Shown here in pieces: positions 1 to 22,609 of a stretch of 64,000 nucleotides of DNA (positions are counted from its first letter, which is position 1; each line of letters begins with the position of its first letter). A model generated the notes under the pieces. That model saw only the letters and a program-made list of their open reading frames with translations. It was not told the origin of the DNA and ran no database searches. The DNA is from an uncultured Gammaproteobacteria bacterium. Lineage in GTDB: Bacteria > Patescibacteriota > Microgenomatia > Levybacterales > UBA12049. A program made the position numbers and the translations under genes. The stretch lies in contig CAZFRF010000001.1 in assembly GCA_964521295.1 (NCBI GenBank), forward strand, positions 641,016-705,015. Reading direction: 5' to 3'.

Positions 1-279
1 ATGGGATTTTATATTGGTTTTGATGGAAATTTAACCTACGCGGGCATTGCAAAAGGAGAAACAGTTCCCTTGCCTCGACTCTGTGAACTAACCCCCGTTA
101 ATCGCATAATCGTAGAAACAGATGCGCCTTTTCTAGCACCAGAACCTCATCGCGGTAGTAGAAATGAACCTAGCTATGTTATAATTACAGGTAGAAAAAT
201 AGCTGAAATTAAAGGTATTTCCCTAGAAGAAATTGATAAAATTGCAACCAATAATACCAAATCAGTTTTTAATCTATGA
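1..279 (+). CDS. TatD-family metal-dependent hydrolase, C-terminal fragment (5' end lies outside the window)
   Basis: ORF runs from the window edge. Conserved TatD C-terminal motifs ETDAPFLAP and PxRGxRNEP are seen in the translation. Confidence 0.6.
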   Translation: MGFYIGFDGNLTYAGIAKGETVPLPRLCELTPVNRIIVETDAPFLAPEPHRGSRNEPSYVIITGRKIAEIKGISLEEIDKIATNNTKSVFNL

Positions 280-1769
280 CTAGTTTTTTTGACCACATTT
301 TTACAACTTACCCTATTAAAACCAGAAGAGCTCTAGAAATACTTCCCGGAATGGTATCTTGGTCCTTAATATTTTTTCCATTTTGGGGATCACTTATAAT
401 ACCCTGGGCTGTAGCGTATTTTATCTTATTTTTCGATGTATATTGGTTCTACAAATCATTTTCACTTGCAATCACTGCTTTTATTGCCTCTAAAAAAATA
501 AAAACGGCTGAACAGAAGGATTGGTTTAAACTTGCTAGGCCATTAGAAAATTTTGAGAAAATGTCGCATATTGTTGTTATTCCTAACTATCAAGAGAGTG
601 CAGAGAAAATAAAAATTGGCATAGAAAGTCTTACTAAGCAAAATTTTCCTCAAAAACGAATCTATATTGTCCTAGCGATGGAAGATAGAGATCCAACTGC
701 AAGAGATAGGGCTAAAACTTTGATTGATGAATTTAAAAACCAATTTGGTGATATTTTTGCAACATTTCATCCCGACATCGAAGGAGAGGTCAAAGGAAAA
801 TCTTCCAACGAAGCTTATGGTGGAAAAATAGCTTACGAAAAATTGGTAAAAACAGGCATTATTGATGAAAACTTTGCCACTATTTCATCTGTAGATGCTG
901 ATTCTATTTTTGATAAGAATTATTTTTCATATCTTTCCCATAGCTTTTTAAATGACGATAAAAGATATAACAAATTTTGGCAATCGGCAAATGTTAACTA
1001 TAATAATTTTTGGAATGTTCCTGCACCAATCAGAATTCTATCCTTTTTTGGATCCCTCTGGAGAACAGCTTTGCTTGTTCAAAAAGACAGACTTGTATCA
1101 AACTCTACCTATTCTTTATCGCTAAAGCTTTTGCATGAAATTGGATTTTGGGATACTGATGTAATTCCAGAAGATTATAGAATATTCTTCAAAGCTTTCT
1201 ATAAAAAAAAGGGCGAAGTCTGGATGGAATCCATTTTCCTAAAAACATCAATGGATGCGCCACTTTCATCTTCTTATGTAAAATCTATTAAAAACAAATA
1301 CCAACAAGAAAGAAGATGGAGTTGGGGAGCTAGTGATGATCCACTATTTATTAAATGGTGGCTTACTACTCCAGGGGTACCTTTTGTTAGAAAAACATTA
1401 ATGCTTATAAATGTATTAGTTGATCATTTCCTATGGCCGGTAAATTGGTTTATCATTACCATTGCCGCAAATATCATGCCCTTTGTAAATCCAGTATTCA
1501 CCAGAACTGCTCTTGGATATAATCTGCCAAGAATAGCAGGTGCAATTTTAACAATTTGCCTTCTCGCAACAGCAGCGATGATCATAATTGATCATCGACA
1601 AAGACAGGGTCACCAAAAGGTTTCCAAAAAAAGACAACTTTTATTTCCTTTAGAATTTCTTTTGCTACCAATTGTTGGATTTTTCTTATCAGCTCTTCCC
1701 GCTTTAATATCACATACACAATTAATGCTAGGTAAAAGATTAGAATATAAAGTTACAGAAAAACTTTAA
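276..1769 (+). CDS. Processive family-2 glycosyltransferase (cellulose/chitin/galactan-synthase-like) with N- and C-terminal TM segments
   Basis: Cytoplasmic GT-A domain with D and DxD motifs (EDRD, SVDADSI) and the processive-synthase QxxRW motif (QQERRWSWG). Hydrophobic helices flank it. A 4-nt overlap with the upstream ORF suggests an operon. Confidence 0.7.
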   Translation: MTSFFDHIFTTYPIKTRRALEILPGMVSWSLIFFPFWGSLIIPWAVAYFILFFDVYWFYKSFSLAITAFIASKKIKTAEQKDWFKLARPLENFEKMSHIVVIPNYQESAEKIKIGIESLTKQNFPQKRIYIVLAMEDRDPTARDRAKTLIDEFKNQFGDIFATFHPDIEGEVKGKSSNEAYGGKIAYEKLVKTGIIDENFATISSVDADSIFDKNYFSYLSHSFLNDDKRYNKFWQSANVNYNNFWNVPAPIRILSFFGSLWRTALLVQKDRLVSNSTYSLSLKLLHEIGFWDTDVIPEDYRIFFKAFYKKKGEVWMESIFLKTSMDAPLSSSYVKSIKNKYQQERRWSWGASDDPLFIKWWLTTPGVPFVRKTLMLINVLVDHFLWPVNWFIITIAANIMPFVNPVFTRTALGYNLPRIAGAILTICLLATAAMIIIDHRQRQGHQKVSKKRQLLFPLEFLLLPIVGFFLSALPALISHTQLMLGKRLEYKVTEKL

Positions 1770-1773
1770 ATTT

Positions 1774-3252
1774 ATGAAATTACTTTCGCTCTATGAAAAG
1801 AGTAAAAACGTTTGGTTTTTAATATTTACAAGTATAATTTTTTTTATACTTAGACTCCCATCTTTAATTGAACCATATTGGTATGGAGATGAAGGAATTT
1901 ATCAGGCCCTTGGACTTGGCATCAACAATGGAAGGATCTTATATCAAGGGATTTTTGATAACAAACCACCTTTTTTATATTTACTTTATGCTCTATTTAA
2001 TTCAGATCAATTTTTATTGAGGAGCGTATCTTTAGTATCTGGATTATTGTCAATTTTTATATTCTTCTTTTTAACTAAAGCTATATTTAAATCTCAAAAA
2101 CCTGCATATCTAGCAACATTTTTATTTTCTATTCTCTTCGGACTTCCACTAATTGAAGGAAATATTGCAAACGCAGAAAACTTCATGATATTTTTTAATC
2201 TTGCTGCTGGATTTTTGGCCATAAAATCATTAGAGACAAATATTAACCAGAGATATAAGCTTTTGTTTTTATCTGGAATATTATTGAGCATTTCTTTTCT
2301 TTTTAAAATTGTCGGAATTTTTGATTTTGCTGCATTTTTTGCATTTATATTTTTCGCCAATTTTTCTAAAAACATAAAAGATATTTTAAATCCTAAAAAT
2401 TTAATAACTGAATTTAAAAATTTATCTCCAATGATTCTTGGATTTAGTATTCTTCCCATACTAGTTATTGGATATTTTATTTTCAACAATGCTTTCCCAT
2501 ATTTCTTAAAAGCCACATTAACTAACAACGTTGGCTATGTTGGCTACGGAAATAAATTTATCATTCCCCAAGGTTTTTTAATATTAAAATTATCAATTTT
2601 ATTTTTAGCTCTCCTAGCTCTCTTTATTAAGAGACAAAAATTATTACTCGGAGAAATGTTTATTTATATTTGGCTAGCCTTCTCTCTTTTTAATGCTTTC
2701 TTTTCACAACGACCTTATACTCATTATGTATTAGTTGCTCTTCCTGCAATTTGTTTATTAACGGGATTGCTATTGATAAAAAGAAACTTTAAGTTAAACG
2801 CATTACTGTTTATTATCACAGTGTTATTAATTTATAAAAATTTTAGTTATTACCACAAAACTACTGTTTACTATCAAAATTTCATAGCATTTATCACCAA
2901 TCATAAATCACTTTATGATTATCAACGCTTTTTTGATGGAAACACTCCAAATGACTATCTATTAGCAAGTTTTCTTAATATGCATTTAAAAAAAGAGGAT
3001 AATATTTTTGTCTGGGGAAATAATGCTCAAGTTTATAAATTAACAAACAAACTTCCCCCTGGAAGATATACTGTTGCCTATCACATTACTAGTTATCCAG
3101 ATGGAATTTCAAATACCCAGCAGGGCTTAGAAAAATCACAACCTAGGTTTATTGTAATAATGCGAAATGTCACAACTTATCCATTCTCCTTGTCAAATTA
3201 TCAAAGTATTGTAAACTTAAACGGAATTGTAATTTATGAAAAAAATAATTGA
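1774..3252 (+). CDS. GT-C-type polytopic membrane glycosyltransferase (PMT/ArnT-like, GT39/83-like)
   Basis: About 12 predicted TM helices. N-terminal loop motif YWYGDEG...NKPPFLYLL resembles the DE-containing first loop of PMT/ArnT family enzymes. Confidence 0.5.
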   Translation: MKLLSLYEKSKNVWFLIFTSIIFFILRLPSLIEPYWYGDEGIYQALGLGINNGRILYQGIFDNKPPFLYLLYALFNSDQFLLRSVSLVSGLLSIFIFFFLTKAIFKSQKPAYLATFLFSILFGLPLIEGNIANAENFMIFFNLAAGFLAIKSLETNINQRYKLLFLSGILLSISFLFKIVGIFDFAAFFAFIFFANFSKNIKDILNPKNLITEFKNLSPMILGFSILPILVIGYFIFNNAFPYFLKATLTNNVGYVGYGNKFIIPQGFLILKLSILFLALLALFIKRQKLLLGEMFIYIWLAFSLFNAFFSQRPYTHYVLVALPAICLLTGLLLIKRNFKLNALLFIITVLLIYKNFSYYHKTTVYYQNFIAFITNHKSLYDYQRFFDGNTPNDYLLASFLNMHLKKEDNIFVWGNNAQVYKLTNKLPPGRYTVAYHITSYPDGISNTQQGLEKSQPRFIVIMRNVTTYPFSLSNYQSIVNLNGIVIYEKNN

Positions 3253-3592
3253 ACCCTTAATAAAAGACAAAGCAACCTTATATTTGGTTATCACAAGCAT
3301 ATTGATATTGATTGTCACATTAATTATCTCAGTGTTTTTTTATTTTAGACTACCACCCTACATACCAATTTTTAACCAATTACCTTGGGGAGATGAAAGA
3401 CTAACTCCAACAATCGGAATCTTTATCCCCGTTGCGGTTCTAACATTTGTTTTAATGTTTAATATATTTTTTTCAACCTTTTTGTATAAAAAAAATAACC
3501 CTTTACTAGGAAGAATAATTTCTTCAATTAGCTTGTTAATTTCTATAATGAATTTTATTTTTATTGTTCATACAATTTTACTTATTATTTAA
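3236..3592 (+). CDS. small polytopic membrane protein, function unknown
   Basis: 118 aa and highly hydrophobic. It overlaps both neighbours, which suggests operon membership. Confidence 0.4.
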   Translation: MKKIIEPLIKDKATLYLVITSILILIVTLIISVFFYFRLPPYIPIFNQLPWGDERLTPTIGIFIPVAVLTFVLMFNIFFSTFLYKKNNPLLGRIISSISLLISIMNFIFIVHTILLII

Positions 3593-4673
3593 AATGTTCA
3601 ATTTAAATTTTTTTCCAATACTTCCTCTATTAATCTCATTAATAATAACAGCATTAACTGTACCAATCTCACTATATTTTTTAAAAAAATTTAAAGTATT
3701 AGATGATCCACAGAAACACAAACATCCTGCAATAATTCATAAAAACCCTATACCAAGAGGTGGGGGTATTCCGCTTTTTTTAGGCGTATTTATTACCAGC
3801 TTATTTTTTGTCCAATTCAATCAAGTAATCATCGCCTCATTTGCAGCTGCTTTTATTGCGCTCGCATTAGGAGTGATAGATGATAAATTTGATATCTCGC
3901 CATACCTGCGTTTTTTTGTAAACATCGCATGTGCAGTAATTGTCGTATATTTTGGAGCAAATGTTGCCTTCATCACCAATCCTTTCGGAGGTATTTTATT
4001 TCTTAATAAAATACAAATTCCTTTTATTAACCTACCAACAATAACTTTACTATCAGATTTAATTGCCATTTTGTGGATAGTATGGGTCATGAACATGCTG
4101 AACTGGAGCAAAGGCGTAGATGGTCAAATGCCAGGAATAGTCGCGATATCTGCCTTTATAATTGGTCTTTTATCATTAAGATTTTCAGTTTTAGATCAAT
4201 CAAGCATAAACGCTGCAACACTATCTTTTATAATTACCGGTGCTGCTTTAGGTTTTTTACTATTTAATAAATACCCTGCAAAAATATTCCCAGGATATGG
4301 AGCAACGGCAATCTACTTACTACTTGCAGTTGTTTCAATAATTTCAGGAGCAAAATTAGCAACGGCAATTTTAGTAATGGGAGTACCAATGACAGACGGA
4401 TTATTCACTATTATAAGAAGGGTTGCTAGTGGGAAATCTCCATTCTGGCATGATAAGCAACATCTACATCATTTACTACTGGGTCTTGGATTAGGACAAA
4501 AAAGAGTAGCTATATTTTACTGGGTTATCTCTGCAATCTTAGGAGTAATTGCCCTAAACCTATCAAGCAAAGGAAAACTTTTTGCTATAATAATGTTAGT
4601 AATATTAGTTTTCGGAGCAATACTTTTCTTACGCTTTTTAATTAAAAAAATTAATAATGAAACTGATTTATAA
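3564..4673 (+). CDS. Polyprenyl-phosphate N-acetylhexosamine-1-phosphate transferase (MraY/WecA family, GT4 superfamily)
   Basis: Polytopic membrane protein with WecA/MraY-like motifs (DDKFDISPYLRF; NMLNWSKGVDGQ; GDxGA-like region). Overlaps the flanking ORFs. Confidence 0.7.
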   Translation: MFIQFYLLFKMFNLNFFPILPLLISLIITALTVPISLYFLKKFKVLDDPQKHKHPAIIHKNPIPRGGGIPLFLGVFITSLFFVQFNQVIIASFAAAFIALALGVIDDKFDISPYLRFFVNIACAVIVVYFGANVAFITNPFGGILFLNKIQIPFINLPTITLLSDLIAILWIVWVMNMLNWSKGVDGQMPGIVAISAFIIGLLSLRFSVLDQSSINAATLSFIITGAALGFLLFNKYPAKIFPGYGATAIYLLLAVVSIISGAKLATAILVMGVPMTDGLFTIIRRVASGKSPFWHDKQHLHHLLLGLGLGQKRVAIFYWVISAILGVIALNLSSKGKLFAIIMLVILVFGAILFLRFLIKKINNETDL

Positions 4674-5610
4674 CGTTTTAAGACTGGTAAGACCTAGGCA
4701 GTGGATTAAAAATTTTGCTCTCTTTGCATCAATAACCTTCTCGGGAGAATTATTTAATTACCCTTTACTTCAAACAGTTGCCCTAGGTTTTATTGTTTTT
4801 TGTGGACTTTCCAGCGCAACTTACATAATCAATGATATATTTGATGTAAAAAAAGACAGATTACACCCTTTTAAAAAGTTTAGGCCCTTAGCTAGCGGAG
4901 ACATCCCAATTTCCTTTGGCATCAGTTTTGCAATCCTTTTAGTCATATCTTCTCTTTATTTAGCTAAAAGTATTAACCCAACTTTTTTTACAATTGGTAT
5001 CGTCTACTTAGTTATTCAAATTTTATACTCGTCCTTTATCAAATCCTTAGCTGTTGTTGACATACTCGCTTTAGCATCGGGATATATCTTAAGAGTATAC
5101 GCGGGAGAGTTTGCTAGCGGTTTCCACATTTCTGTTTGGCTCCTGCTTACAACTATTTCAATTTCTCTTTTTCTAGCAATCGGTAAAAGAAGATCTGAAC
5201 TCACTCTTTTATCAGCAAGTAAAGACATAGATATTGCCGCAACCAGAAAAAGCTTGTCGCATTATTCAGATAGGCTCTTAGATGTATATGCTTCTATTTT
5301 TGCTACCTCAACCTTTATCGCTTATTCTTTATTTACCTTCTTAGAAAACCCGGGAGGATTTAGATTAAATTTAAGTATCTTAGTGCCCGATACCTTGTCT
5401 TCATTTTTTGAAAGAAAATGGTTAATGATAACAATCATTCCTGTCGTCTACGGATTAATGCGCTATCTTCAAGATATTTATGAAAAAAACGAAGGAGAAA
5501 GTCCTGAAAAAGTATTACTTTCTGACAAACCATTACTTGCAACAGTGATTATTTGGGCAATATTAGTAGTCGTCTTAATTTATTTCGTTAGCCCTAGTTC
5601 TGCTTTTTAG
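4657..5610 (+). CDS. UbiA-family prenyltransferase, decaprenyl-phosphate 5-phosphoribosyltransferase-like (DPPR synthase-like)
   Basis: First Asp-rich motif NDIFDVKKDRLHPFKKFRPLASGDI closely matches the NDxxDxxxDRxHPxKxxRPxAxG signature of UbiA-family DPPR synthases. About 8 TM helices. Confidence 0.65.
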   Translation: MKLIYNVLRLVRPRQWIKNFALFASITFSGELFNYPLLQTVALGFIVFCGLSSATYIINDIFDVKKDRLHPFKKFRPLASGDIPISFGISFAILLVISSLYLAKSINPTFFTIGIVYLVIQILYSSFIKSLAVVDILALASGYILRVYAGEFASGFHISVWLLLTTISISLFLAIGKRRSELTLLSASKDIDIAATRKSLSHYSDRLLDVYASIFATSTFIAYSLFTFLENPGGFRLNLSILVPDTLSSFFERKWLMITIIPVVYGLMRYLQDIYEKNEGESPEKVLLSDKPLLATVIIWAILVVVLIYFVSPSSAF

Positions 5611-6436
5611 CATATTGACTACTTATCCAACCTGTTTTTCCATCTTCTAACTTAATTTCATACCAACTCTCTTCTTCGCTAACTAATTCCAATAACTCTC
5701 CAGGCTTTACTTGCGCTATCTCTTCTCCGCTTAATGAAGCACTATCTCTTACTCTTAAAAATCCAGTAGGTGTACTTAAAATTTCAACTTGATTTTTCTT
5801 TGGACTAGAAGTTACACTTGGCGTAGGAATTTTTGCTGCAGATTTAGTTGCAATATCTGAATCAATACCTAAATAAATAACTGCATCTAATTTATATCCA
5901 GGAACTGTTCTAATTCTTACCACTTTATCTTTATAACCATCTTTACTCACCTTTATCTCATGGTCAGATTCAGTCTGATTCTTAACAAGCACCGGGGAAT
6001 TTCCAGCTAAAATACTATCAACATAGACTTGAGCGTCAGTTGGAAATGAAATAACACTAATTTGTGCGTCTTTCTTATTTTCAATTTGATCTAGACCAAT
6101 AATACTGGCTTGCGCCAAAGCTGTTTGAGCAAATGATCTATCAACAACCGTTAAAACCTTTGGGTTAATAGCGATTTTTCTCTGGAAAGGCTCAAAATTT
6201 CCCTCAGTTGGCACAATTCTAATAGTATACTCACCAACCTTGAGCATGTTTTTACTATCGCAAAGACAAAGCGGAGTTGAACCCATTAATTTATCATTTA
6301 AATATACACTCGCTCTAGGCGCAGAGGTAACTTGCAAGGCTCCTTTTTCTGGCCTTGTTCCCAGAAGAAAAATGATAATAAAGAAGATTAAGACAGCAAT
6401 AATTAAACAGAAGAATATAAATAGCAACTTTTTCAC
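5594..6436 (-). CDS. Membrane-anchored protein with PEGA-like repeats and a C-terminal bacterial SH3 (SH3b) domain
   Basis: N-terminal TM helix. Two PEGA-like segments (VYLNDKLMGSTPL, VYVDSILAGNSPVLV). C-terminal SH3_3-like motif (WYEIKLEDGKTGWISSQY). Confidence 0.5.
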   Translation of the reverse strand: MKKLLFIFFCLIIAVLIFFIIIFLLGTRPEKGALQVTSAPRASVYLNDKLMGSTPLCLCDSKNMLKVGEYTIRIVPTEGNFEPFQRKIAINPKVLTVVDRSFAQTALAQASIIGLDQIENKKDAQISVISFPTDAQVYVDSILAGNSPVLVKNQTESDHEIKVSKDGYKDKVVRIRTVPGYKLDAVIYLGIDSDIATKSAAKIPTPSVTSSPKKNQVEILSTPTGFLRVRDSASLSGEEIAQVKPGELLELVSEEESWYEIKLEDGKTGWISSQYAKKQN

Positions 6437-6477
6437 TTTTTGATTATAACTTAAAAGGTCAAATAAAAAAACCTATT

Positions 6478-8435
<1,958 letters not shown>

Positions 8436-8459
8436 AAATTTATCGGAAGGTATCAGTCG

Positions 8460-8506
8460 AGCAGTTTGACTGCTTATTTATACCATAGCCATTGAAAACG
8501 TGTCAA
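8460..8506 (-). promoter_or_regulatory. groES promoter (TTGACA-18-TATAAA) followed by a 15-bp palindrome AGCAGT-N3-ACTGCT at the presumed transcript start
   Basis: Minus-strand -35 is at plus 8501-8506 and -10 at 8477-8482. The perfect 6-bp-arm inverted repeat is at 8460-8474. It is not a canonical CIRCE. Confidence 0.45.
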
Positions 8507-13204: not shown

Positions 13205-13210
13205 AGCGAC

Positions 13211-13507: not shown

Positions 13508-13554
13508 CTTTTTCTTTTGACAAACAAGCCAAATTCCCCTAGACTAAAATTGGT

Positions 13555-14121
13555 ATGTCAAAAAAAAATATCTCCATAAATTTAATCAAAGACCAAAAAA
13601 ATGATATAGTCGAAAGAATTATCAATTGGTCGCTTAGTATCGGTAGGATCCTAGTAATCGCCACAGAACTGGTTGCACTACTTGCGTTTCTTTGGAGATT
13701 CGGACTCGATCAACAATTAATTGATCTACACACACAAATTAAGCAAAAACAGGTAATTGTTGCTGCTTTTAAAAAACAAGAGGATGAATATAGAAACCTA
13801 CAGGACAGACTAAGCATTGCTTCTAATTTTTCTACAATCCAGGAAAAGAACCAACAAGATCTTAAAGCGATATTAAATATCGGCACAAAATATGCAAGTT
13901 TTAACAAAATTTCTAATTCAAGTAATAAAATTTCAATGGAAATTAATATTCCCTCTGTTATTTCATTAAGCAATTTAGTAAATGAAATAAAAAGCTATCC
14001 CTCTACTCAGAACATCAGTATTGATAAGATTGAAACTAAAACAAGCAGTGGAATAATTATCGTAGGAATATCTGTGTATCTAAAACCATTGGCAACAAAA
14101 TATGCAACTGAAAATCAATAA
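13555..14121 (+). CDS. PilN-like bitopic membrane protein (type IV pilus alignment-complex-like)
   Basis: Short cytoplasmic N-terminus with an INLIK motif resembling the PilN INLLP box. One TM helix, then a coiled-coil periplasmic segment. Confidence 0.45.
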   Translation: MSKKNISINLIKDQKNDIVERIINWSLSIGRILVIATELVALLAFLWRFGLDQQLIDLHTQIKQKQVIVAAFKKQEDEYRNLQDRLSIASNFSTIQEKNQQDLKAILNIGTKYASFNKISNSSNKISMEINIPSVISLSNLVNEIKSYPSTQNISIDKIETKTSSGIIIVGISVYLKPLATKYATENQ

Positions 14122-14713
14122 AATTTTTACATCCGTAAATAAAGAAAAATATGGTAAGTACTTAGAGCTTATTCCAGATTTTAAAAAAGAAAAGGCTCAA
14201 AAATTTACAACTATTGTATTAACAATTGTGGCAGTCATTATTTTAGCAATATTCGCAATCAATCCCACGCTATCAACAATTGCAAATCTAAACAAGCAAC
14301 TTGAGGATGCGAGATTCGTATCAAAAAGATTACAAGATAAAATTAACGACTTATCTATATTACAATCAAAATTTAACAGCATACAAGAAGATTTACCCTT
14401 AATTTACGAATCTGTTCCGAAAAAATCTGAAGCACCAAAAATTACTGGACAAATTCAAGCAATTGCCCAAGCAGCTAATGTTACTATAATAAGCACTCAA
14501 ATAAGCAACATTACTCAAGCACAAGCTAAATTTTACTATTTAGATTTTAATATTACATTAACTGGATCATATGAAAATATCATAAATTTCATAGACCAAT
14601 TAAGTAATTCTCAAAGAATTACATATATTTATAACGTTAGCATTACTAAGGGACAAAAAGAGGGTGAAGCATTAAGAGTTAATGTAAAAGGACAGGCCTT
14701 TTTCAAAGAGTAA
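14102..14713 (+). CDS. PilO-like bitopic membrane protein
   Basis: Single TM helix followed by a long coiled-coil and an alpha/beta region. Overlaps the PilN-like ORF. Confidence 0.35.
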   Translation: MQLKINKIFTSVNKEKYGKYLELIPDFKKEKAQKFTTIVLTIVAVIILAIFAINPTLSTIANLNKQLEDARFVSKRLQDKINDLSILQSKFNSIQEDLPLIYESVPKKSEAPKITGQIQAIAQAANVTIISTQISNITQAQAKFYYLDFNITLTGSYENIINFIDQLSNSQRITYIYNVSITKGQKEGEALRVNVKGQAFFKE

Positions 14714-14714
14714 C

Positions 14715-15044
14715 ATGAAAAGAAAAGATATTTTAATCATACTAATTCCAAGCTTAATTGTTGTTATTTTATGGGTAATTTTTAGCGTTTTTCATAACTA
14801 TATTAACTCCACAATTCCTAATGATATTAATATGCAAATCTTATCTATTAATCCCGATTTTGACACAGATACTATAAATAAAATTAAATCTAGGTCAACT
14901 ATTGATCCTATCTATACCTTCGAACAATCTACTGTAGACGAAGCTTCTCTCGATGAAAACCCTTCTCCTACACCAAGTGTAAACCCACCTACGGTAAGCA
15001 CTTCAAGCGCAAAAATAGCTAGCGACGAAGGAGCATTGGAATAA
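14715..15044 (+). CDS. Small membrane-anchored protein with Pro/Ser/Thr-rich tail (PilP-like position)
   Basis: 109 aa, N-terminal TM helix. 1-nt gaps or overlaps with its neighbours. Confidence 0.3.
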   Translation: MKRKDILIILIPSLIVVILWVIFSVFHNYINSTIPNDINMQILSINPDFDTDTINKIKSRSTIDPIYTFEQSTVDEASLDENPSPTPSVNPPTVSTSSAKIASDEGALE

Positions 15045-16459
15045 TGAAACAACATTTTTGGAATAAACGCATTCCAACTTTATTGGGTATTTTTTTAATC
15101 GGCGTAGGCATAATCGTTACAACCATCCTAGTTAAACAAGGTGGTTTTTTATCAATTAACGCTAGCCCAACTACTCAACCAAAAAATGTAAGAATAACAA
15201 ATATTACCCATGATAGTTTTACGGTTTCTTATGAAACTCAAGATTCGGTTTTCGGGGTTATTAGTTATGGAACAAGTATTGAATTAGGCAAATCGGGACT
15301 CGACGATCGAGACCAGGAAACCGGAAACATATCGGCACATAAATTACATAACATTACAGTCAGAAATTTAACCCCTGAAACCAAGTATTATTTTTCAATC
15401 ATTAGCGGAAAGGATACATTTCTAAACACAGACAGTCCTTATGAGGTGACTACCGGAATAGAGATTTCCGAATCACCTACTGAGCAGGAACCAGTTAGCG
15501 GCAGGATTCTTCTTCCCAATGGAAAACCTCCAGCTGAAAGCATTATCTACTTAACCACAGAGGGAACTCAAATAATATCATCTTTAGTTAAAAATGACGG
15601 AACTTTTGTTATCCCTCTTAATTCCTTACGAACAACAGATTTAATCTCCTATAGCACTCTTAGCGAGAATCAAATTCTCAAACTATTAATAACTGGCGAT
15701 AACAGTCAAACATCAAGCGTCATTATTTCATTAGATCAAATCCAGCCTATTCCACCCATCTCCTTAGGTAGTAACTACGACTTCACACAAAGTGAAAAAA
15801 AAACAGCAACCAACTCTGCAGTACTCGAGGTATTTCCATCCTTCTCCAGCACAGAAAAAACAGTTGAAACCAATAACGGACCCAAAATAATAACTCCCGA
15901 AAGAAATGCAGAAATTCCCGATCAAAAACCAAAATTTACTGGTACAGCAAACCCTAACGAAACAATTCAGGTAATTATTCATTCAGATGAGAAAATTCAA
16001 GTAGATGTAAAAACAGATTCAAAAGGCAATTGGAGCTATAGACCAACAAAAGATCTTTCTCCTGGTAACCATACTATTACTGTAGTTGCAAAAGACAAAA
16101 ATGGAATATTAAAAACAATTATCCAATCCTTCGTTGTTTATGCTTCGGGTAGTCAACTAGAAGGAGAGACAGGCTCACCAACCCCTACTGTCAAACCTCA
16201 AGCAACAAAAACGATAACACAAACGCCAACCCATACTCCAACTACAGCACCCAATATAACAACAAACACGCCTACAACTGAGCCAATTGATAGTAATAAC
16301 GTTGTTACCATCACAGAAGCAGCAACTAAATCTCCAACCCCAACTACCCCTTTACCTCCAACCGGGAATCCTACTATAATGAGCTTCGGTATAGTTGGAT
16401 TAGTAGTTACCATGTTAGGTAGTCTTCTATTTCTTCTATCTAGAAAAAATAGCATATGA
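15044..16459 (+). CDS. LPXTG cell-wall-anchored surface protein with FN3-like and Ig-like domains
   Basis: N-terminal TM/signal. FN3-like segment (NVRITNITHDSFTVSYET...KYYFSI). T/P-rich linker. Canonical C-terminal sorting signal LPPTG plus hydrophobic stretch plus SRKNSI positive tail. Confidence 0.7.
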   Translation: MKQHFWNKRIPTLLGIFLIGVGIIVTTILVKQGGFLSINASPTTQPKNVRITNITHDSFTVSYETQDSVFGVISYGTSIELGKSGLDDRDQETGNISAHKLHNITVRNLTPETKYYFSIISGKDTFLNTDSPYEVTTGIEISESPTEQEPVSGRILLPNGKPPAESIIYLTTEGTQIISSLVKNDGTFVIPLNSLRTTDLISYSTLSENQILKLLITGDNSQTSSVIISLDQIQPIPPISLGSNYDFTQSEKKTATNSAVLEVFPSFSSTEKTVETNNGPKIITPERNAEIPDQKPKFTGTANPNETIQVIIHSDEKIQVDVKTDSKGNWSYRPTKDLSPGNHTITVVAKDKNGILKTIIQSFVVYASGSQLEGETGSPTPTVKPQATKTITQTPTHTPTTAPNITTNTPTTEPIDSNNVVTITEAATKSPTPTTPLPPTGNPTIMSFGIVGLVVTMLGSLLFLLSRKNSI

Positions 16460-17739
16460 AGATAGCAATAATTGGAGCCGGTTTTACAGGGCTTTCTGCT
16501 GCCTGGGAGTTAGTTAAAAATAATCATGATGTATATATATATGAAAAGGATACATATCCAGGAGGGCTCGCTATTGGTTATCAGGAAAAAAAATGGAATT
16601 GGTCCCTAGAAAAACACTATCATCATTGGTTTACTAATGATAAAAGCGTTTTGGATCTTGCGGAAGAAATAAAATTTAAAGTTATAGTAAAAAGGCCAAA
16701 AACTACTGTTTTAATTCAAGATAAAATTTACCAACTAGATTCTCCACTTACTGTATTAAGATTTCCTTTAATGTCTTTCCTGTCTAGAATAAGAATGGCT
16801 GCAGTAATCGGCTTTTTAAAATTCAATCCATTATGGAAACCTTTGGAAAAATACAAAGCCGCAAAAGTATTACCACTTCTTATGGGAAAAAAGGCATATG
16901 AGATGATTTGGGAGCCCTTATTCATAAATAAGTTTGGTAAATATACAAGTAATATTTCACTCGCCTGGTTTTGGGCGAGAATTACTAAAAGAACTCCATC
17001 TCTTGCTTATCCAAAAGGGGGATTTTTAAATTTTGCAAACGCTTTGACAAAAACAATAAAAATAAAAAAAGGCAAATTTTTCTTTGATACAGAAATACTT
17101 GATTTAAAAGAAGATAAAAAATTAATCCTGACAATAAAAGACAAAAATGAAAAAATCACGCAAGAGGAATTTGATAAAATTATCGTTACAACTCCTTCAT
17201 TTTTATTCTTAAAAATTGCAAAAAACTTACCTAATGAATATAAAAATAAACTCGGAAAACTACATGGCCTGGGAGCAACAAATCTAGTTCTTAGACTCAA
17301 AAAACCATTCTTTAACGATAGTACCTATTGGGTAAGTGTCTGCGATAAAAATGCACCCGTAATGGCAATTGTCGAACACACTAACTTCATGAATAAAAAG
17401 TTCTACAATAATGAAAGTATTTTATATTTAGGTAATTACCGAGATTCCAATGATATTTATTTCCAAATGAATGAAGATCAAATGCTTAATCATTTCGATA
17501 CTTTTCTAAAAAAAATTAACCCTGAATACAAAAAAAACATAATCAGTAAAAAATTGTTTAAATCCCCATTTGCTCAGCCAATCATTCCAATTAATTATTC
17601 CAAAATATTACCTAAATTTATAACTCCTATTAAAAATGTATACTTAGCCAACATCGAACAAGTTTATCCATGGGATAGAGGTACAAATTATGCGGTTGAA
17701 TTAGGTCAGAAAGTTGTAAAAATTGCCCTAGATGAATAA
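16456..17739 (+). CDS. FAD-dependent oxidoreductase, UDP-galactopyranose mutase (Glf)-like / amine-oxidase superfamily
   Basis: N-terminal Rossmann dinucleotide motif IAIIGAGFTGLSAA...YEKDTYPGG. HxFHTND-like HWFTNDK. KQWG-like NKFGK block followed by the PKGG motif. Confidence 0.6.
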   Translation: MKIAIIGAGFTGLSAAWELVKNNHDVYIYEKDTYPGGLAIGYQEKKWNWSLEKHYHHWFTNDKSVLDLAEEIKFKVIVKRPKTTVLIQDKIYQLDSPLTVLRFPLMSFLSRIRMAAVIGFLKFNPLWKPLEKYKAAKVLPLLMGKKAYEMIWEPLFINKFGKYTSNISLAWFWARITKRTPSLAYPKGGFLNFANALTKTIKIKKGKFFFDTEILDLKEDKKLILTIKDKNEKITQEEFDKIIVTTPSFLFLKIAKNLPNEYKNKLGKLHGLGATNLVLRLKKPFFNDSTYWVSVCDKNAPVMAIVEHTNFMNKKFYNNESILYLGNYRDSNDIYFQMNEDQMLNHFDTFLKKINPEYKKNIISKKLFKSPFAQPIIPINYSKILPKFITPIKNVYLANIEQVYPWDRGTNYAVELGQKVVKIALDE

Positions 17740-19351
17740 ATTATTTCAATTTATAAAATCTAATAAAATAGAAACACTTATTGCTTTATTAGCCGTCTGT
17801 TTTTCAACTTGGTTAATGTTTTCATCATTTAACGTAAGCGAAGGAAATATGCAAATATCTGCAAAATCATGGAGCGATTTTGCTAGCCACATACCCTTAA
17901 TTAGATCCTTTTCTCTAGGCTCCAATCTACCACCTGAATATCCATTATTTGCAGGACCAGCTATTAAATATCATTATCTATTCTATTTAGTCGTAGGCGT
18001 GTTAGAAAGAATAGGGGTTAGGATTGATTTTGCCTTAAATATTCCCTCAATTATAGGTTTTGCTTCGTTAATATTTATGATTTATCTTTTTGCAAAAGAA
18101 ATTTTTAAATCTAAAATGGTTGGCATTATAAGTATTTTTTTGTTTTTATTTAATAGCTCATTAAGTTTTATTAATTTTTTTCGAGAACATTCTTTCTCAA
18201 TTCAGGAGATAATTTTAAATAAAGACTTTACGAATTTTGGTCCGTATGACGGAGGAGTAATATCAGCTTTTTGGAATTTAAATATTTACACAAACCAAAG
18301 ACACCTAGCCTTAGCCTATGCACTTTCCCTACTAATCATCTACACATTCTTAAAACTACATACTACAAATCATAAAAATGCATATGAAAAAACACTAATT
18401 ATTGGAATTGTACTTGGGTTATCTTTCATATTAAACATGGCTGTATTTTTAATGACAATTTCTGTTCTTATAACATTAATGCTATTTCTAAAACATCAAA
18501 GAAAATATATTTTTATATCTTTAATGTTATCTGGAGTAATTGCGCTGCCCTTTTACTTATATCAAATCTCCACGCCATCTATGGCGCCCATCACTTTTTG
18601 GCCTGGATATTTAGTAACTGATCTATCGATTATTAATTTCATTAATTATTGGGTACAAAATATCGGCCTCAATATAGTTTTAATACCAATTGGATTTATT
18701 ATCGCAAAAAAAATTCAGAAAAAAATATTAATTGCGTTTTTCAGCATTTTTATAATCGGAAATATCTTGAAATTTTCACCTGAAATTGCAGCCAATCATA
18801 AATTTTTCAATTTCTTTATTATCGTTTCAGCTATGTTCTCTGCAAATTTACTTGTTAGTTTATGGAAAAAACATGACACACTAAAGCCAATAACTATATT
18901 ATTATTTTTAGGATTAATTCTTTCAGGAATTATTGATTTTTTCCCAATATATAATGATCGAAAAATTACACTTGAAGATTATACAAACAATCCAAGTATT
19001 AGATGGATAAAAAATAGCACTCCTAGCGACTCTATTTTTTTAAACTCGCAATATTTATATAACTACGCGAATATCGCAGGTAGAAGAATATTTTTGGGAT
19101 GGCCATACTTCTCTTGGTCACAGGGGTACAATACAGAAGCAAGAGATAATCTAAGAAAAAAAATGTTAAACACTAATGATCTATCATTTTTTTGCAGCAA
19201 CGCAACAAATTATAAATTAAATTATATCGATATTAATACACGAAACGAAGATGCAATGGTAAATTTAAATTTTTTTGAGAAAAACTTTAAAAAGGTATAT
19301 GAAAATATGAAGGATGGATTTATAATCTACAGTATTAATTCAAAATGCTAA
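17732..19351 (+). CDS. Polytopic membrane protein, GT-C-like glycosyltransferase candidate
   Basis: 539 aa with at least 12 TM helices and large loops. Overlaps the Glf-like gene and the downstream YYY-domain gene. Confidence 0.4.
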   Translation: MNKLFQFIKSNKIETLIALLAVCFSTWLMFSSFNVSEGNMQISAKSWSDFASHIPLIRSFSLGSNLPPEYPLFAGPAIKYHYLFYLVVGVLERIGVRIDFALNIPSIIGFASLIFMIYLFAKEIFKSKMVGIISIFLFLFNSSLSFINFFREHSFSIQEIILNKDFTNFGPYDGGVISAFWNLNIYTNQRHLALAYALSLLIIYTFLKLHTTNHKNAYEKTLIIGIVLGLSFILNMAVFLMTISVLITLMLFLKHQRKYIFISLMLSGVIALPFYLYQISTPSMAPITFWPGYLVTDLSIINFINYWVQNIGLNIVLIPIGFIIAKKIQKKILIAFFSIFIIGNILKFSPEIAANHKFFNFFIIVSAMFSANLLVSLWKKHDTLKPITILLFLGLILSGIIDFFPIYNDRKITLEDYTNNPSIRWIKNSTPSDSIFLNSQYLYNYANIAGRRIFLGWPYFSWSQGYNTEARDNLRKKMLNTNDLSFFCSNATNYKLNYIDINTRNEDAMVNLNFFEKNFKKVYENMKDGFIIYSINSKC

Positions 19352-21465
19352 ATATAAGTTCTGCTGATTTTAATCATATTATTAGCTGGTGGATACATTT
19401 ACTTTTATTAGGAATTATATTTATTCCTATTACTTCTTTAATATTTAATAAATTCAAAGACAAAGGTTATATATTTACTAAAATAATCTCTTTAATTTTT
19501 ATTTCCTATACTATCTTTACAGCGGGCACTTTAAAGATCTTAAATTTTTCATTTCCGAATTTGATATTTATATTAGTAATTTTTGGATTCATAAACTTAC
19601 TAGTTTTTAAACGAAATAACTCAATTAAAAATCTACTCAGAGATCTTAAATTCTTTATAATCGAAGAGATCATCTTTCTATTAACACTTATTTTTTGGTG
19701 TTTTATTAGAGGAAATCAACCAGACATTCATGGGTTAGAAAAATTTATGGACTTTGGAATGGTTAATTCTATACTTAGAACTGACTTTTTTCCTGTTAAT
19801 GATATTTGGTACTCAGGCTTAACAATCAATTATTATTATTTTGGTCACCTAATGACTGCTGTAATAATAAAATTATCAAATGTTCCTTCTTACATCGGCT
19901 ACAATCTAATGATCTGCACTCTGTTTGCATTAACATTTACGTCAGTAATCTCTTTAGCTATTAATTTATTCAATAATCTAAAGATCTCCAGCAAATCCTT
20001 AATAGCTGGCATACTTTCTGCATCACTGGTAGCTTTAAGCGGAAACCTTACGTCAATTTATACTTTTTTTAAAGCCTATGTTAACGAACATCCGGTTCCA
20101 TTTTGGAAGTTAGAATTTCTACCTTTTACTTTTCCAAATAATTTCTGGTATCCTAATGCAACAAGATTTATTCCCTATACTATCCATGAATTTCCTCTTT
20201 ATTCTTTTGTAGTTTCTGATCTTCACGGACATGTACTAGATATACCAGTTGTCTTATTTACAATTGCTTTTGTTTTTAGCTTGTTTTTAAAACAACAGAT
20301 TAAGAAAATTGACCTTTTGTTTATTGGTTTTCTTGCTGCTGTTATGTATATGACAAACGCTTGGGATGGACTCATATACACCCTCCTCGGACTAATTATT
20401 CTTTTATATCTAATGTTTGTTAAAGATCACAAGATAGTTATTAAAAAAGAAAATCTTATTAATTTTTCAATAAATCTAACATCTCTTTTTATGGGTTTTG
20501 TTTTATTCTCTTTACCTTTTAGCGCAAATTTTAAACCTTTTGTTTCAGGTATTGGAGTCATGTGCGCCCCAAGCGCATTAACCAATCTCGGAAAACTAGG
20601 TCCATTTTTATTTGAAGCAAACCATTGCCAAAAATCCCCAATTTGGCAACTAGTAATTTTATACGGATTTTTTTATTTTTTTGTGATTACGTTTTTGATC
20701 TTTCTGAAATCTCGACAAAAAAATACCCACACTTTTTCCGATAAATTTATTCTCTTTTTAATTTTATTGTCTACATTATTAATAATAATCCCAGAATTTA
20801 TATACATAAAAGATATTTATCCCATGCATTACAGAGCAAATACTATGTTTAAATTAACTTACGAAGCATTTATTATGCTTTCTATTGCATGTGGATATAT
20901 AATTTTAAGAATATTTTCCGGATTAAAAAATAAATTATTAGTATTTATATTTTTCATATTTTCTTTAATACTTATCTATCTTGTATTAAGCTATCCAATA
21001 TTCGCCATAAACTCATATTATAATAATTTAAAAAATAATCCTAACTTAGATGGTTTGAGATATATGCAGAAAAATCATCCAAACGATTATGATTTAATAA
21101 ATTGGATAAATAAAAATATAGACAAACAAACAATAATACTAGAATCAGCAGGTGACTCATACACAGATTACGCAAGAATATCGGCTAATACCGGTATACC
21201 AACAATAATTGGCTGGTCAGTCCACGAATGGCTATGGAGAGGAACATACGATGTTGTAGGACCAAGGGTTAATGATGTTCAAACAATTTATACTTCAAAT
21301 AATCTTGAGCAAGTTAAGAATCTTCTTGCGAAATACAAGGTAAAATACATAGTTGTATCAAGCCTAGAAAGAGAAAAATATAAAACTTTAAATGAAAATA
21401 ATTTTAAAAAAATTGCTAAATTAGTCTATGATAAAAAAGGTGCGAGATTATATAAGCTTAATTAG
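19345..21465 (+). CDS. YYY-domain membrane protein (DUF2298 / chlor_Arch_YYY family), GT-C-like
   Basis: 706 aa polytopic protein with the characteristic motif INYYYFGHLM, followed by a soluble C-terminal domain. Confidence 0.55.
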   Translation: MLNISSADFNHIISWWIHLLLLGIIFIPITSLIFNKFKDKGYIFTKIISLIFISYTIFTAGTLKILNFSFPNLIFILVIFGFINLLVFKRNNSIKNLLRDLKFFIIEEIIFLLTLIFWCFIRGNQPDIHGLEKFMDFGMVNSILRTDFFPVNDIWYSGLTINYYYFGHLMTAVIIKLSNVPSYIGYNLMICTLFALTFTSVISLAINLFNNLKISSKSLIAGILSASLVALSGNLTSIYTFFKAYVNEHPVPFWKLEFLPFTFPNNFWYPNATRFIPYTIHEFPLYSFVVSDLHGHVLDIPVVLFTIAFVFSLFLKQQIKKIDLLFIGFLAAVMYMTNAWDGLIYTLLGLIILLYLMFVKDHKIVIKKENLINFSINLTSLFMGFVLFSLPFSANFKPFVSGIGVMCAPSALTNLGKLGPFLFEANHCQKSPIWQLVILYGFFYFFVITFLIFLKSRQKNTHTFSDKFILFLILLSTLLIIIPEFIYIKDIYPMHYRANTMFKLTYEAFIMLSIACGYIILRIFSGLKNKLLVFIFFIFSLILIYLVLSYPIFAINSYYNNLKNNPNLDGLRYMQKNHPNDYDLINWINKNIDKQTIILESAGDSYTDYARISANTGIPTIIGWSVHEWLWRGTYDVVGPRVNDVQTIYTSNNLEQVKNLLAKYKVKYIVVSSLEREKYKTLNENNFKKIAKLVYDKKGARLYKLN

Positions 21466-22609
21466 AAGATTTAGCTGGAATAGTACAATTCCCTCTATTA
21501 ATCTCGCAGTTTAAATAAGTCTTTATTTCTGAAAAGTTTCCATTTCCCACTCTAGGCACTAATACAGAAAGAAAGTCATATTCACTTGAAATTGGAGCCT
21601 CTTCTAGTAATCCAGGCCTATTATTTATATAATCTCCAATATCAACTGTAGCATTATTAATCTTTGCCCCTCTCATTTTCTGAGCTAATCTAATAAAGTC
21701 ATCAAACTCTTCGGAAGTAATATCTGTATCAATACTATCCTTAATAACTGTATAAAGATTAATTATTCTACCCGGATTTATTAATGTCTCTGCAGAGAAA
21801 ACTTTATCTCTAAAAGCTGTAATTATCTTTTGCTGCCTTTTACTTCTTGCGAAATCACCACTCTCAACTCCCAATGCATGCCTAGATCTAACATATTCCA
21901 AAGCAGTTTCGCCATCCATATGATTTGGTCCCTTGTTAAAATGTAAGTGCTTGTATCTACACGCAAACTTTTCCTGTAATTCGACCTCAGCAGAAGTGGT
22001 AGCTACGAAAGCAGTAATTTCCTCATCTGTGAATCCACACTTATCATCTTCCTTTCCAGAAATTGGATACTCATAATCATCAAAGGTGTTATCGATGTTT
22101 ATTTCTAGGCCTCCGATAATATCAACTGCCTCAACGAAGCCCGAGAAATCAATTCTAACCGCATAATCTATTGTTTGACCCGTTACCTTCCCCACAACTG
22201 CCTTTGCCAAGCTTAACCCTCCACCTTTACGCTTTTGCTCGCCTTCATTATAGGCTTCATTTATTTTTTTAACAGACGTTGCAAGATCTGGAACCCATAA
22301 ATCCCTAGGAATAGATGCCAGAGTAACTCTATTTTTTGCCTCATCTAAATTAGCTAATATTATTGTGTCTGTTAGATTAGGACCATCGTGTCTTCCTCCA
22401 CCAATGCCTAATAATAAAATATTTATTTTTGTTGGGGTTGACTGTTTGAGCTTTACTTCCTTATCAAACATCAAATGAAATATAAATGGATAAAAAGATG
22501 CTGTTTTCCAAACAAAAATACCCAGTATCACAACCACAAAAACACCAGCAATAATAATTCGCCTTCTTTTTTTAAGCATTTTGGATAATCTTAACAAACT
22601 CTTGTGCAT
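21458..22609 (-). CDS. LytR-CpsA-Psr (LCP) family glycopolymer-peptidoglycan ligase
   Basis: N-terminal TM plus LCP core motifs (LLLGIGGGR...LTDTIILANLD...TLASIPRDLWV). The start may be at the second Met (MLKK). Confidence 0.8.
   Translation of the reverse strand: MHKSLLRLSKMLKKRRRIIIAGVFVVVILGIFVWKTASFYPFIFHLMFDKEVKLKQSTPTKINILLLGIGGGRHDGPNLTDTIILANLDEAKNRVTLASIPRDLWVPDLATSVKKINEAYNEGEQKRKGGGLSLAKAVVGKVTGQTIDYAVRIDFSGFVEAVDIIGGLEINIDNTFDDYEYPISGKEDDKCGFTDEEITAFVATTSAEVELQEKFACRYKHLHFNKGPNHMDGETALEYVRSRHALGVESGDFARSKRQQKIITAFRDKVFSAETLINPGRIINLYTVIKDSIDTDITSEEFDDFIRLAQKMRGAKINNATVDIGDYINNRPGLLEEAPISSEYDFLSVLVPRVGNGNFSEIKTYLNCEINRGNCTIPAKSSN

Follow-up and report, generated by a model that had tools for sequence, protein, structure and literature searches.

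Pentofuranose residues can be added to glycans by three-component systems, which comprise a polyprenyl-phosphate phosphoribosyltransferase (PPPRS), a HAD phosphoribose phosphatase, an optional SDR epimerase (for xylofuranose, Xylf) or DprE1/E2 (for arabinofuranose, Araf), a flippase of the MATE or SMR type and a GT-C glycosyltransferase, and which transfer ribofuranose (Ribf), Xylf or Araf (Kelly et al., PNAS 2024, PMC11127046). The prototype is found in Citrobacter youngae O1/O2, where ORF15 is the PPPRS-PRP, ORF14 the MATE flippase, ORF12 the GT-C (GT136) and ORF13 the SDR epimerase; the paper mentions neither bacteria of the candidate phyla radiation (CPR) nor Chloroflexi nor a flavoenzyme (PMC11127046). 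This pathway is the closest described system to the locus analysed here, which lies in a 64,000-nucleotide stretch of contig CAZFRF010000001.1, called the window below, and encodes a UbiA-family PPPRS in one operon and a flavoenzyme with polytopic membrane proteins in a second. We consider it on balance probable that the two operons form one module for extracytoplasmic glycosylation, in which a polyprenyl-phosphate-linked pentofuranose derived from phosphoribosyl pyrophosphate (PRPP) is used by a CPR bacterium that is monoderm and contains peptidoglycan. The evidence for a lipid-linked pentose module across both operons is good, and there is none for the galactan half of an arabinogalactan route or for arabinose specifically. 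The original prediction for this DNA had presented such a pathway as not described outside Actinobacteria, a statement that is out of date since the pathway type is already known there (PMC11127046).

On sequence evidence, the host is a small-genome CPR bacterium of the Microgenomates group that resembles Levybacteria. The window has a G+C content of ~32% and its proteins are best matched by proteins labelled Candidatus Levybacteria or Levyibacteriota. The listed matches of the operon 1 GT2 glycosyltransferase are 71–95% identical to it and most of those listed for the flavoenzyme are 63–72% identical, the named ones being Levybacteria. Wall-related genes within the window encode MurJ, FemAB (peptidoglycan-related), an LCP ligase and a sortase. 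Comparisons were made across 160 loci, of which 80 were taken from species-level genomes around flavoenzyme homologues and 80 from metagenomes around UbiA homologues; they are cited by L numbers where they have to be told apart. Open reading frames (ORFs) of these loci were labelled using iterated local hidden Markov models (HMMs) seeded with window proteins and were cross-checked by Pfam. As tblastn with window proteins was too insensitive for the GT-Cs of distant loci, the iterated HMMs and pooled Pfam scans of neighbour genes were used instead. The genome scan alignment for the flavoenzyme was limited to sequences that keep YPWDRGTN, and the transmembrane (TM) segments given below are estimates. 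Several loci that are clearly Microgenomates-like in gene order and sequence (e.g. L008, L009, L013, L017, L034 and L057) carry the source titles “uncultured Gammaproteobacteria” or “Pseudomonadales” and are probably mislabelled metagenome-assembled genomes.

The gene that defines the proposed chemistry is the last one of operon 1 (276–5610, plus strand), which together with its flanking genes has the following layout:

1–279, plus strand: 3' end of a TatD-family gene (PF01026, E=6.5e-22), overlapping the GT2 start by 4 nt
276–1769, plus strand: membrane-embedded GT2 of processive-synthase type, 497 aa (PF13632, E=1.2e-8; weak PgaC-like match)
1774–3252, plus strand: GT-C glycosyltransferase, PMT_2/GT39-like, 492 aa, ~9 TM segments and a C-terminal soluble domain
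3236–3592, plus strand: conserved membrane protein, 118 aa, ~3 TM segments, with homologues between GT-C and WecA genes
3564–4673, plus strand: WecA/TagO-like member of the polyprenyl-phosphate N-acetylhexosamine-1-phosphate transferase (PNPT) family (PF00953, E=8.4e-24)
4657–5610, plus strand: polyprenyl-phosphate 5-phosphoribosyltransferase, a UbiA protein of PPPRS/DPPR-synthase type (NF008978, 220.7 bits; 8j8j match)
5594–6436, minus strand: PEGA/SH3 domain protein (PF08308, PF08239), convergent with UbiA

The UbiA protein scores 220.7 bits on NF008978, the equivalog model for decaprenyl-phosphate phosphoribosyltransferase (DPPR synthase), which has a cut-off of 207. On NF008977 it reaches 222.6 bits, slightly under the cut-off of 234, and on NF006088 (“UbiA family prenyltransferase”) 166 bits. 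Its best solved relative is Rv3806c (8j8j, E=6.4e-42), and in the alignment to 8j8j the residues N73, D74, D77 and D81 of the NDxxDxxxD motif are kept, as are Y70 and Y138. The roles in Rv3806c of this Mg/PRPP motif and of the reaction-centre residues Tyr70 and Tyr138 have been described (PMC11127046, PMC10994848). On all other models, which represent quinone, haem-O, chlorophyll and archaeal-lipid prenyltransferases, the protein scores at most 46 bits, versus ~221 on the DPPR-synthase models. The original prediction had made the same assignment and would have given it up had the protein clustered with menaquinone or haem-O enzymes; it does not, and strong homology predicts a PPPRS of the Rv3806c type. 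The scores also bear on an account in which nothing but vertical inheritance holds these genes together, the genome being a small and collinear one and the enzymes belonging to unrelated housekeeping, such as peptidoglycan or teichoic-acid-like synthesis, quinone or haem prenylation and an unrelated oxidase. A UbiA protein this far from the quinone and haem-O models argues against that account, which we hold to be very improbable and which is taken up again below with the gene order.

The flavoenzyme is encoded by operon 2, which consists of seven overlapping or abutting plus-strand genes (13555–21465) and lies between two minus-strand genes:

11500–13167, minus strand: MurJ-family (MOP superfamily) flippase (PF03023, E=9.5e-64), adjoining operon 2
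13555–14121, plus strand: PilN-like bitopic protein, 188 aa, single TM segment, no Pfam match; first gene of the extended operon 2
14102–14713, plus strand: PilO-family bitopic protein, 203 aa (PF04350, E=1.4e-13)
14715–15044, plus strand: 109-aa single-TM protein with a Ser/Thr/Pro-rich tail and homologues in the same position
15044–16459, plus strand: LPPTG surface protein, 471 aa, with fn3/Big_13 domains (PF19077, PF00041), a Thr/Pro-rich stalk, LPPTG, a TM segment and a basic tail
16456–17739, plus strand: cytoplasmic FAD enzyme of the NF005560/PRK07233 family (PF01593 Amino_oxidase over the full length)
17732–19351, plus strand: 539-aa polytopic protein, divergent DUF2298 paralogue and putative GT-C (PF10060, E=3.3e-7), ~10 TM segments and a C-terminal domain
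19345–21465, plus strand: 706-aa DUF2298/chlor_Arch_YYY protein (YYY protein), putative GT-C (PF10060, E=1.6e-95; TIGR03662, 515 bits), ~12–13 TM segments and a C-terminal domain
21458–22609, minus strand: LCP-family glycopolymer ligase, 383 aa, one N-terminal TM anchor (PF03816, E=2.5e-33; TIGR00350, 101 bits with a cut-off of 62.3)

All ORFs named in the original prediction are present at their coordinates. Its operon 2, described as a run of overlapping genes at 16456–21465, is correct as to the overlap and too short as to the start, which is moved to 13555 by the genes for the PilN- and PilO-like, 109-aa and LPPTG proteins. The LCP ligase that it placed at 21458–22609 is there, on the minus strand and convergent with operon 2 rather than following it in the same direction; loci of Levy-, Blackburn-, Chisholm- and Shapirobacteria have the same pairing of YYY (+) with LCP (-). 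For operon 1 the listed genes were all found, the conserved ORF at 3236–3592 having been left out. The statement that all of its genes overlap fails for the GT2 and GT-C genes, which are separated by 4 nt.

Both gene orders are repeated in related genomes, as the original prediction required. The order TatD-GT2-GT-C-118aa-WecA-UbiA-PEGA(-) recurs widely among the metagenome loci, with TatD as a conserved upstream neighbour and the TatD-GT2 order seen in many loci. The gene immediately 5' of UbiA encodes WecA in 56 of 71 loci, and a GT-C gene lies within four genes of UbiA in 43 of the 59 loci that have at least four genes (in the window, the 492-aa GT-C is encoded three genes upstream). In 39/66 loci UbiA is followed directly by the PEGA/SH3 gene, which in the window shares 17 nt with the 3' end of UbiA. 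As for the flavoenzyme, the next gene encodes a GT-C in 41 of 72 loci and a GT-C is found within three genes in 49 of 75. Loci of Levy-, Blackburn-, Davies-, Shapiro-, Gottesman-, Woese- and Chisholmbacteria share this neighbourhood, including some with different outer flanks (L051, L059, L062, L063).

The functional link between the two operons is drawn from other Microgenomates lineages, because there UbiA adjoins the flavoenzyme, or replaces it, inside a cluster of the operon 2 type. UbiA directly follows the flavoenzyme in L055 (where one GT-C comes next), in L084 and L086 (where at least two GT-Cs come next) and in L102, which ends after UbiA. In L093 and L095 the order is MurJ-PilN-PilO-LPXTG-UbiA-GT-C(x2–3)-...-PAP2-YYY, and L096 is the same up to UbiA, where the locus ends; in these three loci MurJ is co-oriented with the PilN-PilO-LPXTG-UbiA cluster and heads it. 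LPXTG-UbiA-GT-C is found in L090 and L097 and LPXTG-UbiA in L092, and the YYY gene closes the UbiA-containing clusters L093–L095. The earlier claim that the two operons are linked is borne out in this sense.

Relatives of the locus also carry genes for candidate enzymes of a pentofuranose pathway. An extended SDR of the epimerase/dehydratase family (PF01370) is part of the flavoenzyme cluster in 17 of 75 loci and a ~190-aa HAD-motif protein, with invariant DxD, K and D and a near-invariant S, in 20 of 75; the latter has no database match, including none in the PDB by sequence or profile. In relatives, the SDR and HAD-motif genes are placed between the GT-Cs and YYY, and either a PAP2 phosphatase or the HAD-motif protein is encoded directly upstream of YYY at L093:15676–16245, L094:6835–7410 and L019:15808–16383.

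Gene order is also the evidence on which the vertical-inheritance account would have to stand. In Levybacteria the flanking genes for GroEL/ES, LepA, MurJ, TIM, UvrD and FemAB are equally collinear, as that account would have it. Proximity inside Levybacteria proves little, because the whole neighbourhood is collinear, and only rearranged lineages carry weight. There, however, the module genes are re-assorted and yet stay together where the flanks differ (L051, L059, L062, L063, L084, L086, L093–L097), and within each operon start and stop codons overlap. Vertical inheritance as the only explanation is disfavoured.

The flavoenzyme was originally described as Glf-like, that is, as related to UDP-galactopyranose mutase (UGM), an identity that we reject. 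It scores 369.6 bits on NF005560/PRK07233, an uncharacterised model with a cut-off of 252, matches PF01593 and has no match to PF03275 or to the UGM model TIGR00031. A profile built from 32 diverse family members matches protoporphyrinogen oxidase (PPOX, 2.4e-18), phytoene desaturase (PDS, 1.3e-16, residues 2–396) and L-amino-acid and monoamine oxidases, and UGM is not within its best 60 matches. In line with this, the AlphaFold model (pLDDT 77.7) has L-amino-acid oxidase, PPOX and PDS as its top Foldseek matches, and UGM is absent from the top 50. UGM shares the broad fold superfamily with the flavoenzyme, yet the flavoenzyme is not a member of the UGM family. It has neither a signal peptide nor a TM segment, and its family is set apart by the invariant motifs YHHxF, EHTN and YPWDRGTNY. 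The family is large (~625 clusters at 50% identity with E<1e-30) and extends beyond Microgenomates: Chloroflexota have both flavoenzyme and DUF2298 proteins, and at least one archaeon (a Nanoarchaeota record) has the flavoenzyme. In these outside records its neighbours are LPG_synthase_TM flippase-like proteins (9 hits, upstream), PMT_2/PMT and DUF2298 proteins. Two fusions were found, one joining an LPG_synthase_TM (flippase-like) domain to the flavoenzyme (P0389, 824 aa) and the other joining the flavoenzyme to a SAM methyltransferase (P0255, 666 aa).

The two polytopic proteins that follow the flavoenzyme had been described as of GT-C type, one of them carrying the YYY motif. Membership in DUF2298/TIGR03662 holds for them, with a weak match for the 539-aa protein, which shares 27% identity with the YYY protein in the C-terminal domain (E=8e-5). 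DUF2298 belongs to the Pfam GT-C clan, and the layout of the two proteins is compatible with a GT-C fold; the GT-C kinship itself receives no support from hhalign. A homologue of the 539-aa protein directly follows the flavoenzyme in Levy-, Blackburn-, Davies-, Shapiro-, Gottesman- and Woesebacteria loci, and 29 of 75 loci encode a YYY homologue no more than seven genes away from the flavoenzyme. Sequence and profile searches of the PDB with the YYY protein gave no match.

The remaining proteins of operon 1 are, apart from one, as first described. The GT2 does carry the QxxRW motif: DAD (207–209), PED (298–300) and QERRW (344–348) are invariant among its homologues in two alignments and make up a D,D,D,QxxRW signature, and the catalytic domain has hydrophobic TM segments before and after it. 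From these features it is predicted to be a membrane synthase of the D,D,D,QxxRW type and to be processive. Its only Pfam matches are PF13632 and PF13641, and PDB searches with the single sequence and with the family profile gave no sequence-detectable solved relative. The 492-aa protein stands as a GT-C membrane transferase by family criteria, although it has no Pfam match of its own: its homologues (54–92% identity) carry PF13231, PF02366 and PF27757 and are named as GT39 family, its layout is polytopic, and the loop-1 motif E33-P-x-W-Y-G-D39-E40-G, with D39 and E40, is invariant among them. PDB searches with its sequence and profile were without match. The 118-aa protein has no Pfam or NCBIfam match; its homologues occupy the interval between GT-C and WecA in 39 ORFs of related loci, and it is a candidate accessory or flippase-like component. 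The WecA/MraY-like transferase was also correctly recognised: it scores higher on the WecA model (TIGR02380, 95.9 bits) than on the MraY model (52 bits), both scores being below cut-off, and its best PDB matches are MraY structures (E=7e-11). It is a putative initiator of a glycan linked to lipid pyrophosphate.

With these assignments the alignment of the gene set with the mycobacterial arabinogalactan route, which was the core of the original prediction, does not hold. In that route WecA primes, Glf and a GlfT2-like GT2 build galactofuran, UbiA and an epimerase make polyprenyl-phosphate-arabinofuranose, GT-Cs extend it and LCP ligates the product. Here, the flavoenzyme is without a UGM match and closest by profile to PPOX and phytoene desaturase. 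The GT2, proposed as the GlfT2 counterpart, is a TM-flanked QxxRW synthase with no GlfT2 match; its AlphaFold model, which is of low confidence (mean pLDDT 63.6) and confident in the GT-A core only, has its best Foldseek matches in PcManGT (a membrane mannosyltransferase), hyaluronan synthases and BcsA, and no GlfT2 in the top 50. DprE1 and DprE2 were not found in the window, where no non-nested ORF of at least 300 aa matched FAD_binding_4 or adh_short. The GT-Cs are of the PMT_2 and DUF2298 types and not Emb/Aft, no Arabinose_trans-type match being found among those of the window. The galactan half of the route is largely refuted, and we give very little credence to the route as a whole.

The PilN-like gene is conserved 5' of PilO in related loci, and 33 of 75 loci encode a PilO homologue at most five genes before the flavoenzyme. 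The best plus-strand promoter-like site (13517–13545) lies directly 5' of the PilN-like gene, which is weak evidence; promoter and terminator scans were uninformative, their counts being equal to those in shuffled sequence. The last 4 nt of the LPPTG gene are also the first of the flavoenzyme gene, and an LPXTG-type gene lies within two genes upstream of the flavoenzyme in 38 loci of the flavoenzyme set. Homologues of the LPPTG protein have a stalk with a Ser/Thr/Pro fraction of ~0.45–0.6 followed by an LPxTG-like motif. Judged by these features, the LPPTG protein is a candidate sortase substrate and a candidate glycosylation acceptor. A sortase (PF04203) encoded at 43759–44340 on the minus strand fits it. 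One small gene (43258–43662) away from the sortase, a DUF1295/steroid-5-alpha-reductase-like membrane protein is encoded at 42494–43261 (minus strand), which could in principle act on polyprenols.

The preferred reading, one module in two operons, can be written as a series of steps. UbiA would transfer 5-phosphoribose from PRPP to polyprenyl phosphate, as its strong homology predicts. The 5-phosphate would be removed by a phosphatase, none being recognised in the window and relatives having a HAD-like or PAP2 enzyme in the cluster. The NF005560 flavoenzyme would then alter the lipid-linked donor, in many relatives together with an SDR epimerase-type enzyme, after which the donor would be flipped across the membrane. 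MurJ is probably the lipid II flippase, and its flipping the pentose donor is only a possibility. On the outer face, the GT-Cs (492-aa PMT_2 type and 539-aa and 706-aa DUF2298 type) would transfer the pentofuranose to one or both of two acceptors. The first would be a WecA-primed and GT2-built glycan, which LCP would then join to peptidoglycan, and the second the LPPTG protein, whose gene is co-transcribed, in its Ser/Thr/Pro-rich stalk. Candidate sugars are ribo-, xylo- and arabinofuranose. The locus gives no sign of galactofuranose and does not single out arabinose, because the window lacks Glf, GlfT2 and DprE1/E2 and its GT-Cs are not Emb/Aft.

In this series we propose that the flavoenzyme modifies the lipid-linked donor, either in the sugar or in the polyprenyl chain, and there are three options for its reaction, which the data do not tell apart. 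It could oxidise the sugar in the manner of DprE1, an option drawn by analogy and favoured by the SDR partner and the adjacency to UbiA. It could tailor the polyprenyl chain, which is favoured by the affinities to PPOX and PDS, the association with GtrB-like GT2 genes and the fusions to flippase domains. Lastly, it could carry out a non-redox rearrangement of a lipid-linked sugar as UGM does, for which kinship of fold is the one point in favour. A bolder form of the first option is that the flavoenzyme is a new kind of enzyme acting on polyprenyl-phosphate-linked sugars, for instance a non-homologous replacement of DprE1 which, alone or with the cluster SDR, turns polyprenyl-P-ribofuranose into another pentofuranose, and which with the DUF2298 “YYY” GT-Cs builds a pentofuranose wall glycopolymer or glycoprotein widespread in Microgenomates. 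We put this forward tentatively, as a possibility that is more doubtful than the module itself.

The second option is shared with an alternative in which the two operons make different products. UbiA would serve the operon 1 GT-C only, decorating the WecA/GT2 wall polysaccharide. Operon 2 would provide PMT-like O-glycosylation of the LPPTG protein, or of a PilN/O-associated surface structure, with a polyprenyl-P-hexose made, for example, by the GtrB-like GT2 encoded at 38252–38938, and the flavoenzyme would tailor the polyprenyl carrier and not the sugar, by saturation or desaturation in the way of its phytoene-desaturase-like relatives. The nearest folds, PPOX and PDS, do act on hydrophobic, membrane-associated substrates, and in Roizman-, Woese- and related loci (L041, L043, L045–L047, L057) a GtrB-like GT2 is found beside the flavoenzyme instead of UbiA. 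The flavoenzyme is associated with LPG_synthase_TM flippase-like domains, in one case by fusion, operon 2 is co-transcribed with the Ser/Thr/Pro-rich LPPTG protein, and the window holds a second donor cluster of hexosamine type. A strict division of labour is, however, hard to square with the loci in which UbiA lies between the LPXTG and GT-C/YYY genes (L093, L095) or next to an LPXTG gene (L090, L092, L096, L097), nor does it fit those in which UbiA directly follows the flavoenzyme (L055, L084, L086, L102). Furthermore, HAD-like and PAP2 phosphatases in clusters of the operon 2 type would be needed only for a phosphorylated sugar, e.g. ribose-5-P. A literature search for polyprenol reductases of archaea or bacteria turned up no lead on lipid modification. 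Two separate products are unlikely in our view.

Several observations weigh against the single module that we prefer. The 25-kb neighbourhood is collinear throughout in Levybacteria, including GroEL, LepA and UvrD. UbiA is encoded within seven genes of the flavoenzyme in just one of 75 genome loci, and the flavoenzyme is present anywhere in just 4 of 79 metagenome loci around UbiA. The substrate of the flavoenzyme may not be pentose-specific, because GtrB-like GT2 genes are its neighbours in several lineages. In the comparison of DUF2298 with the PMT_2-like family, hhalign gave no significant result (probability <1%), and the structural model of the GT2 is, as noted, of low confidence. Within the 64-kb window the pathway is incomplete, with no homologue of a phosphoribose phosphatase, SDR or DprE1/E2; for HAD-like and PAP2 phosphatases this follows from tblastn with the relatives' proteins and from Pfam scans. 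Finally, no flippase of the MATE, SMR or GtrA type was recognised at the locus, which has the 118-aa 3-TM protein without family match and the adjacent MurJ.

The window contains further genes of interest. The second donor cluster (36555–41034, minus strand) encodes a DegT aminotransferase, a Gfo/Idh/MocA oxidoreductase, a 228-aa PF00535 GT2 (GtrB/ArnC-like), a hexapeptide acyltransferase and a 419-aa protein (~12 TM segments, no Pfam match), and looks like a three-component glycosylation set using an acetamido sugar and polyprenyl-P-hexose. At 30828–33081 (minus strand), a 511-aa fusion of an RnfD/NQR2-like membrane domain with FAD- and NAD-binding domains of the ferredoxin-reductase type is encoded, overlapped by an ApbE flavin transferase gene. 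A eukaryote-type topoisomerase IB (PF01028 with the bacterial Top1B N-terminal domain) is encoded at 34964–36004 on the plus strand.

CPR bacteria make up a large share of bacterial diversity and, to our knowledge, their envelope chemistry is almost unstudied. The locus yields a testable prediction, namely that a wall glycan or an LPXTG surface protein carries pentofuranose that comes from PRPP by way of a lipid-linked donor. It also gives the DUF2298/TIGR03662 “YYY” family and the NF005560 flavoenzyme family a context in polyprenyl-phosphate-dependent extracytoplasmic glycosylation. A literature search returned nothing relevant on DUF2298, TIGR03662 or PRK07233, or on CPR with a DPPR synthase or arabinofuranosyltransferase, and what appears to be new here is the CPR/Microgenomates variant together with the context for two uncharacterised families. 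Should the flavoenzyme indeed replace DprE1, a step that is validated as a drug target in tuberculosis would have a second, independent solution.

The comparison with described systems can now be made step by step. In the mycobacterial DPA/arabinan pathway (DPA, decaprenylphosphoryl arabinose; Rv3806c, Rv3807c, DprE1/DprE2, Rv3789, Emb/Aft and Lcp1) the first enzyme is homologous to the UbiA protein described here and the active-site residues are kept. GT-Cs use lipid-linked donors outside the membrane there and would do so here, an LCP ligase is encoded nearby, and some relatives of the locus have a PAP2 phosphatase, the family type of Rv3807c. In contrast to mycobacteria, the window has no DprE1 (VAO-type) or DprE2, no Emb/Aft GT-C and no Glf, GlfT1 or GlfT2, and the redox enzymes of the cluster are the amine-oxidase-fold flavoenzyme only, joined in relatives by the extended SDR.

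Synthase-dependent, WecA-primed polysaccharides are known, for example of the Salmonella O:54 WbbF type, and LCP proteins attach wall glycopolymers in Gram-positive bacteria. Similarly, a WecA-family initiator is encoded here beside a D,D,D,QxxRW GT2, and LCP and sortase genes are found in the same segment. The difference is that the GT2 family of this locus has no sequence-detectable solved relative.

In Pseudomonas (para)aeruginosa Pa5196/PA7, pilin is modified with D-arabinofuranose by a PPPRS, DprE1/E2 homologues and the GT-C TfpW. A PPPRS and GT-Cs are likewise combined here, the GT-C genes being co-transcribed with PilN/PilO-like genes and a gene for a Ser/Thr/Pro-rich surface protein; O-glycosylation of that protein is a hypothesis only. 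Unlike the Pseudomonas system, the operon has no pilin, PilB/C or PilM gene and the window no DprE1/E2 homologues, and the candidate acceptor is an LPPTG-anchored protein.

The closest resemblance is to the system of Kelly et al., as a UbiA-family polyprenyl-phosphate phosphoribosyltransferase is clustered with GT-Cs in both. Moreover, relatives of this locus add a HAD-motif protein and a GalE-like SDR of the epimerase/dehydratase family, a parallel to the HAD phosphatase and SDR epimerase of the prototype. The differences are several: here UbiA has no fused phosphatase and no separate one was found in the window, the MATE/SMR flippase of the prototype is without a recognised counterpart at the locus, and the GT-Cs are of the PMT_2 and DUF2298 types with several per locus. 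The prototype has a lipopolysaccharide O antigen, whereas the bacterium here is a monoderm member of the CPR with LCP and sortase. The NF005560 flavoenzyme, a near-constant partner here, has no counterpart in the prototype, and, in contrast to the PPPRS systems compared here, this locus co-transcribes PilN/O-like and LPXTG proteins.

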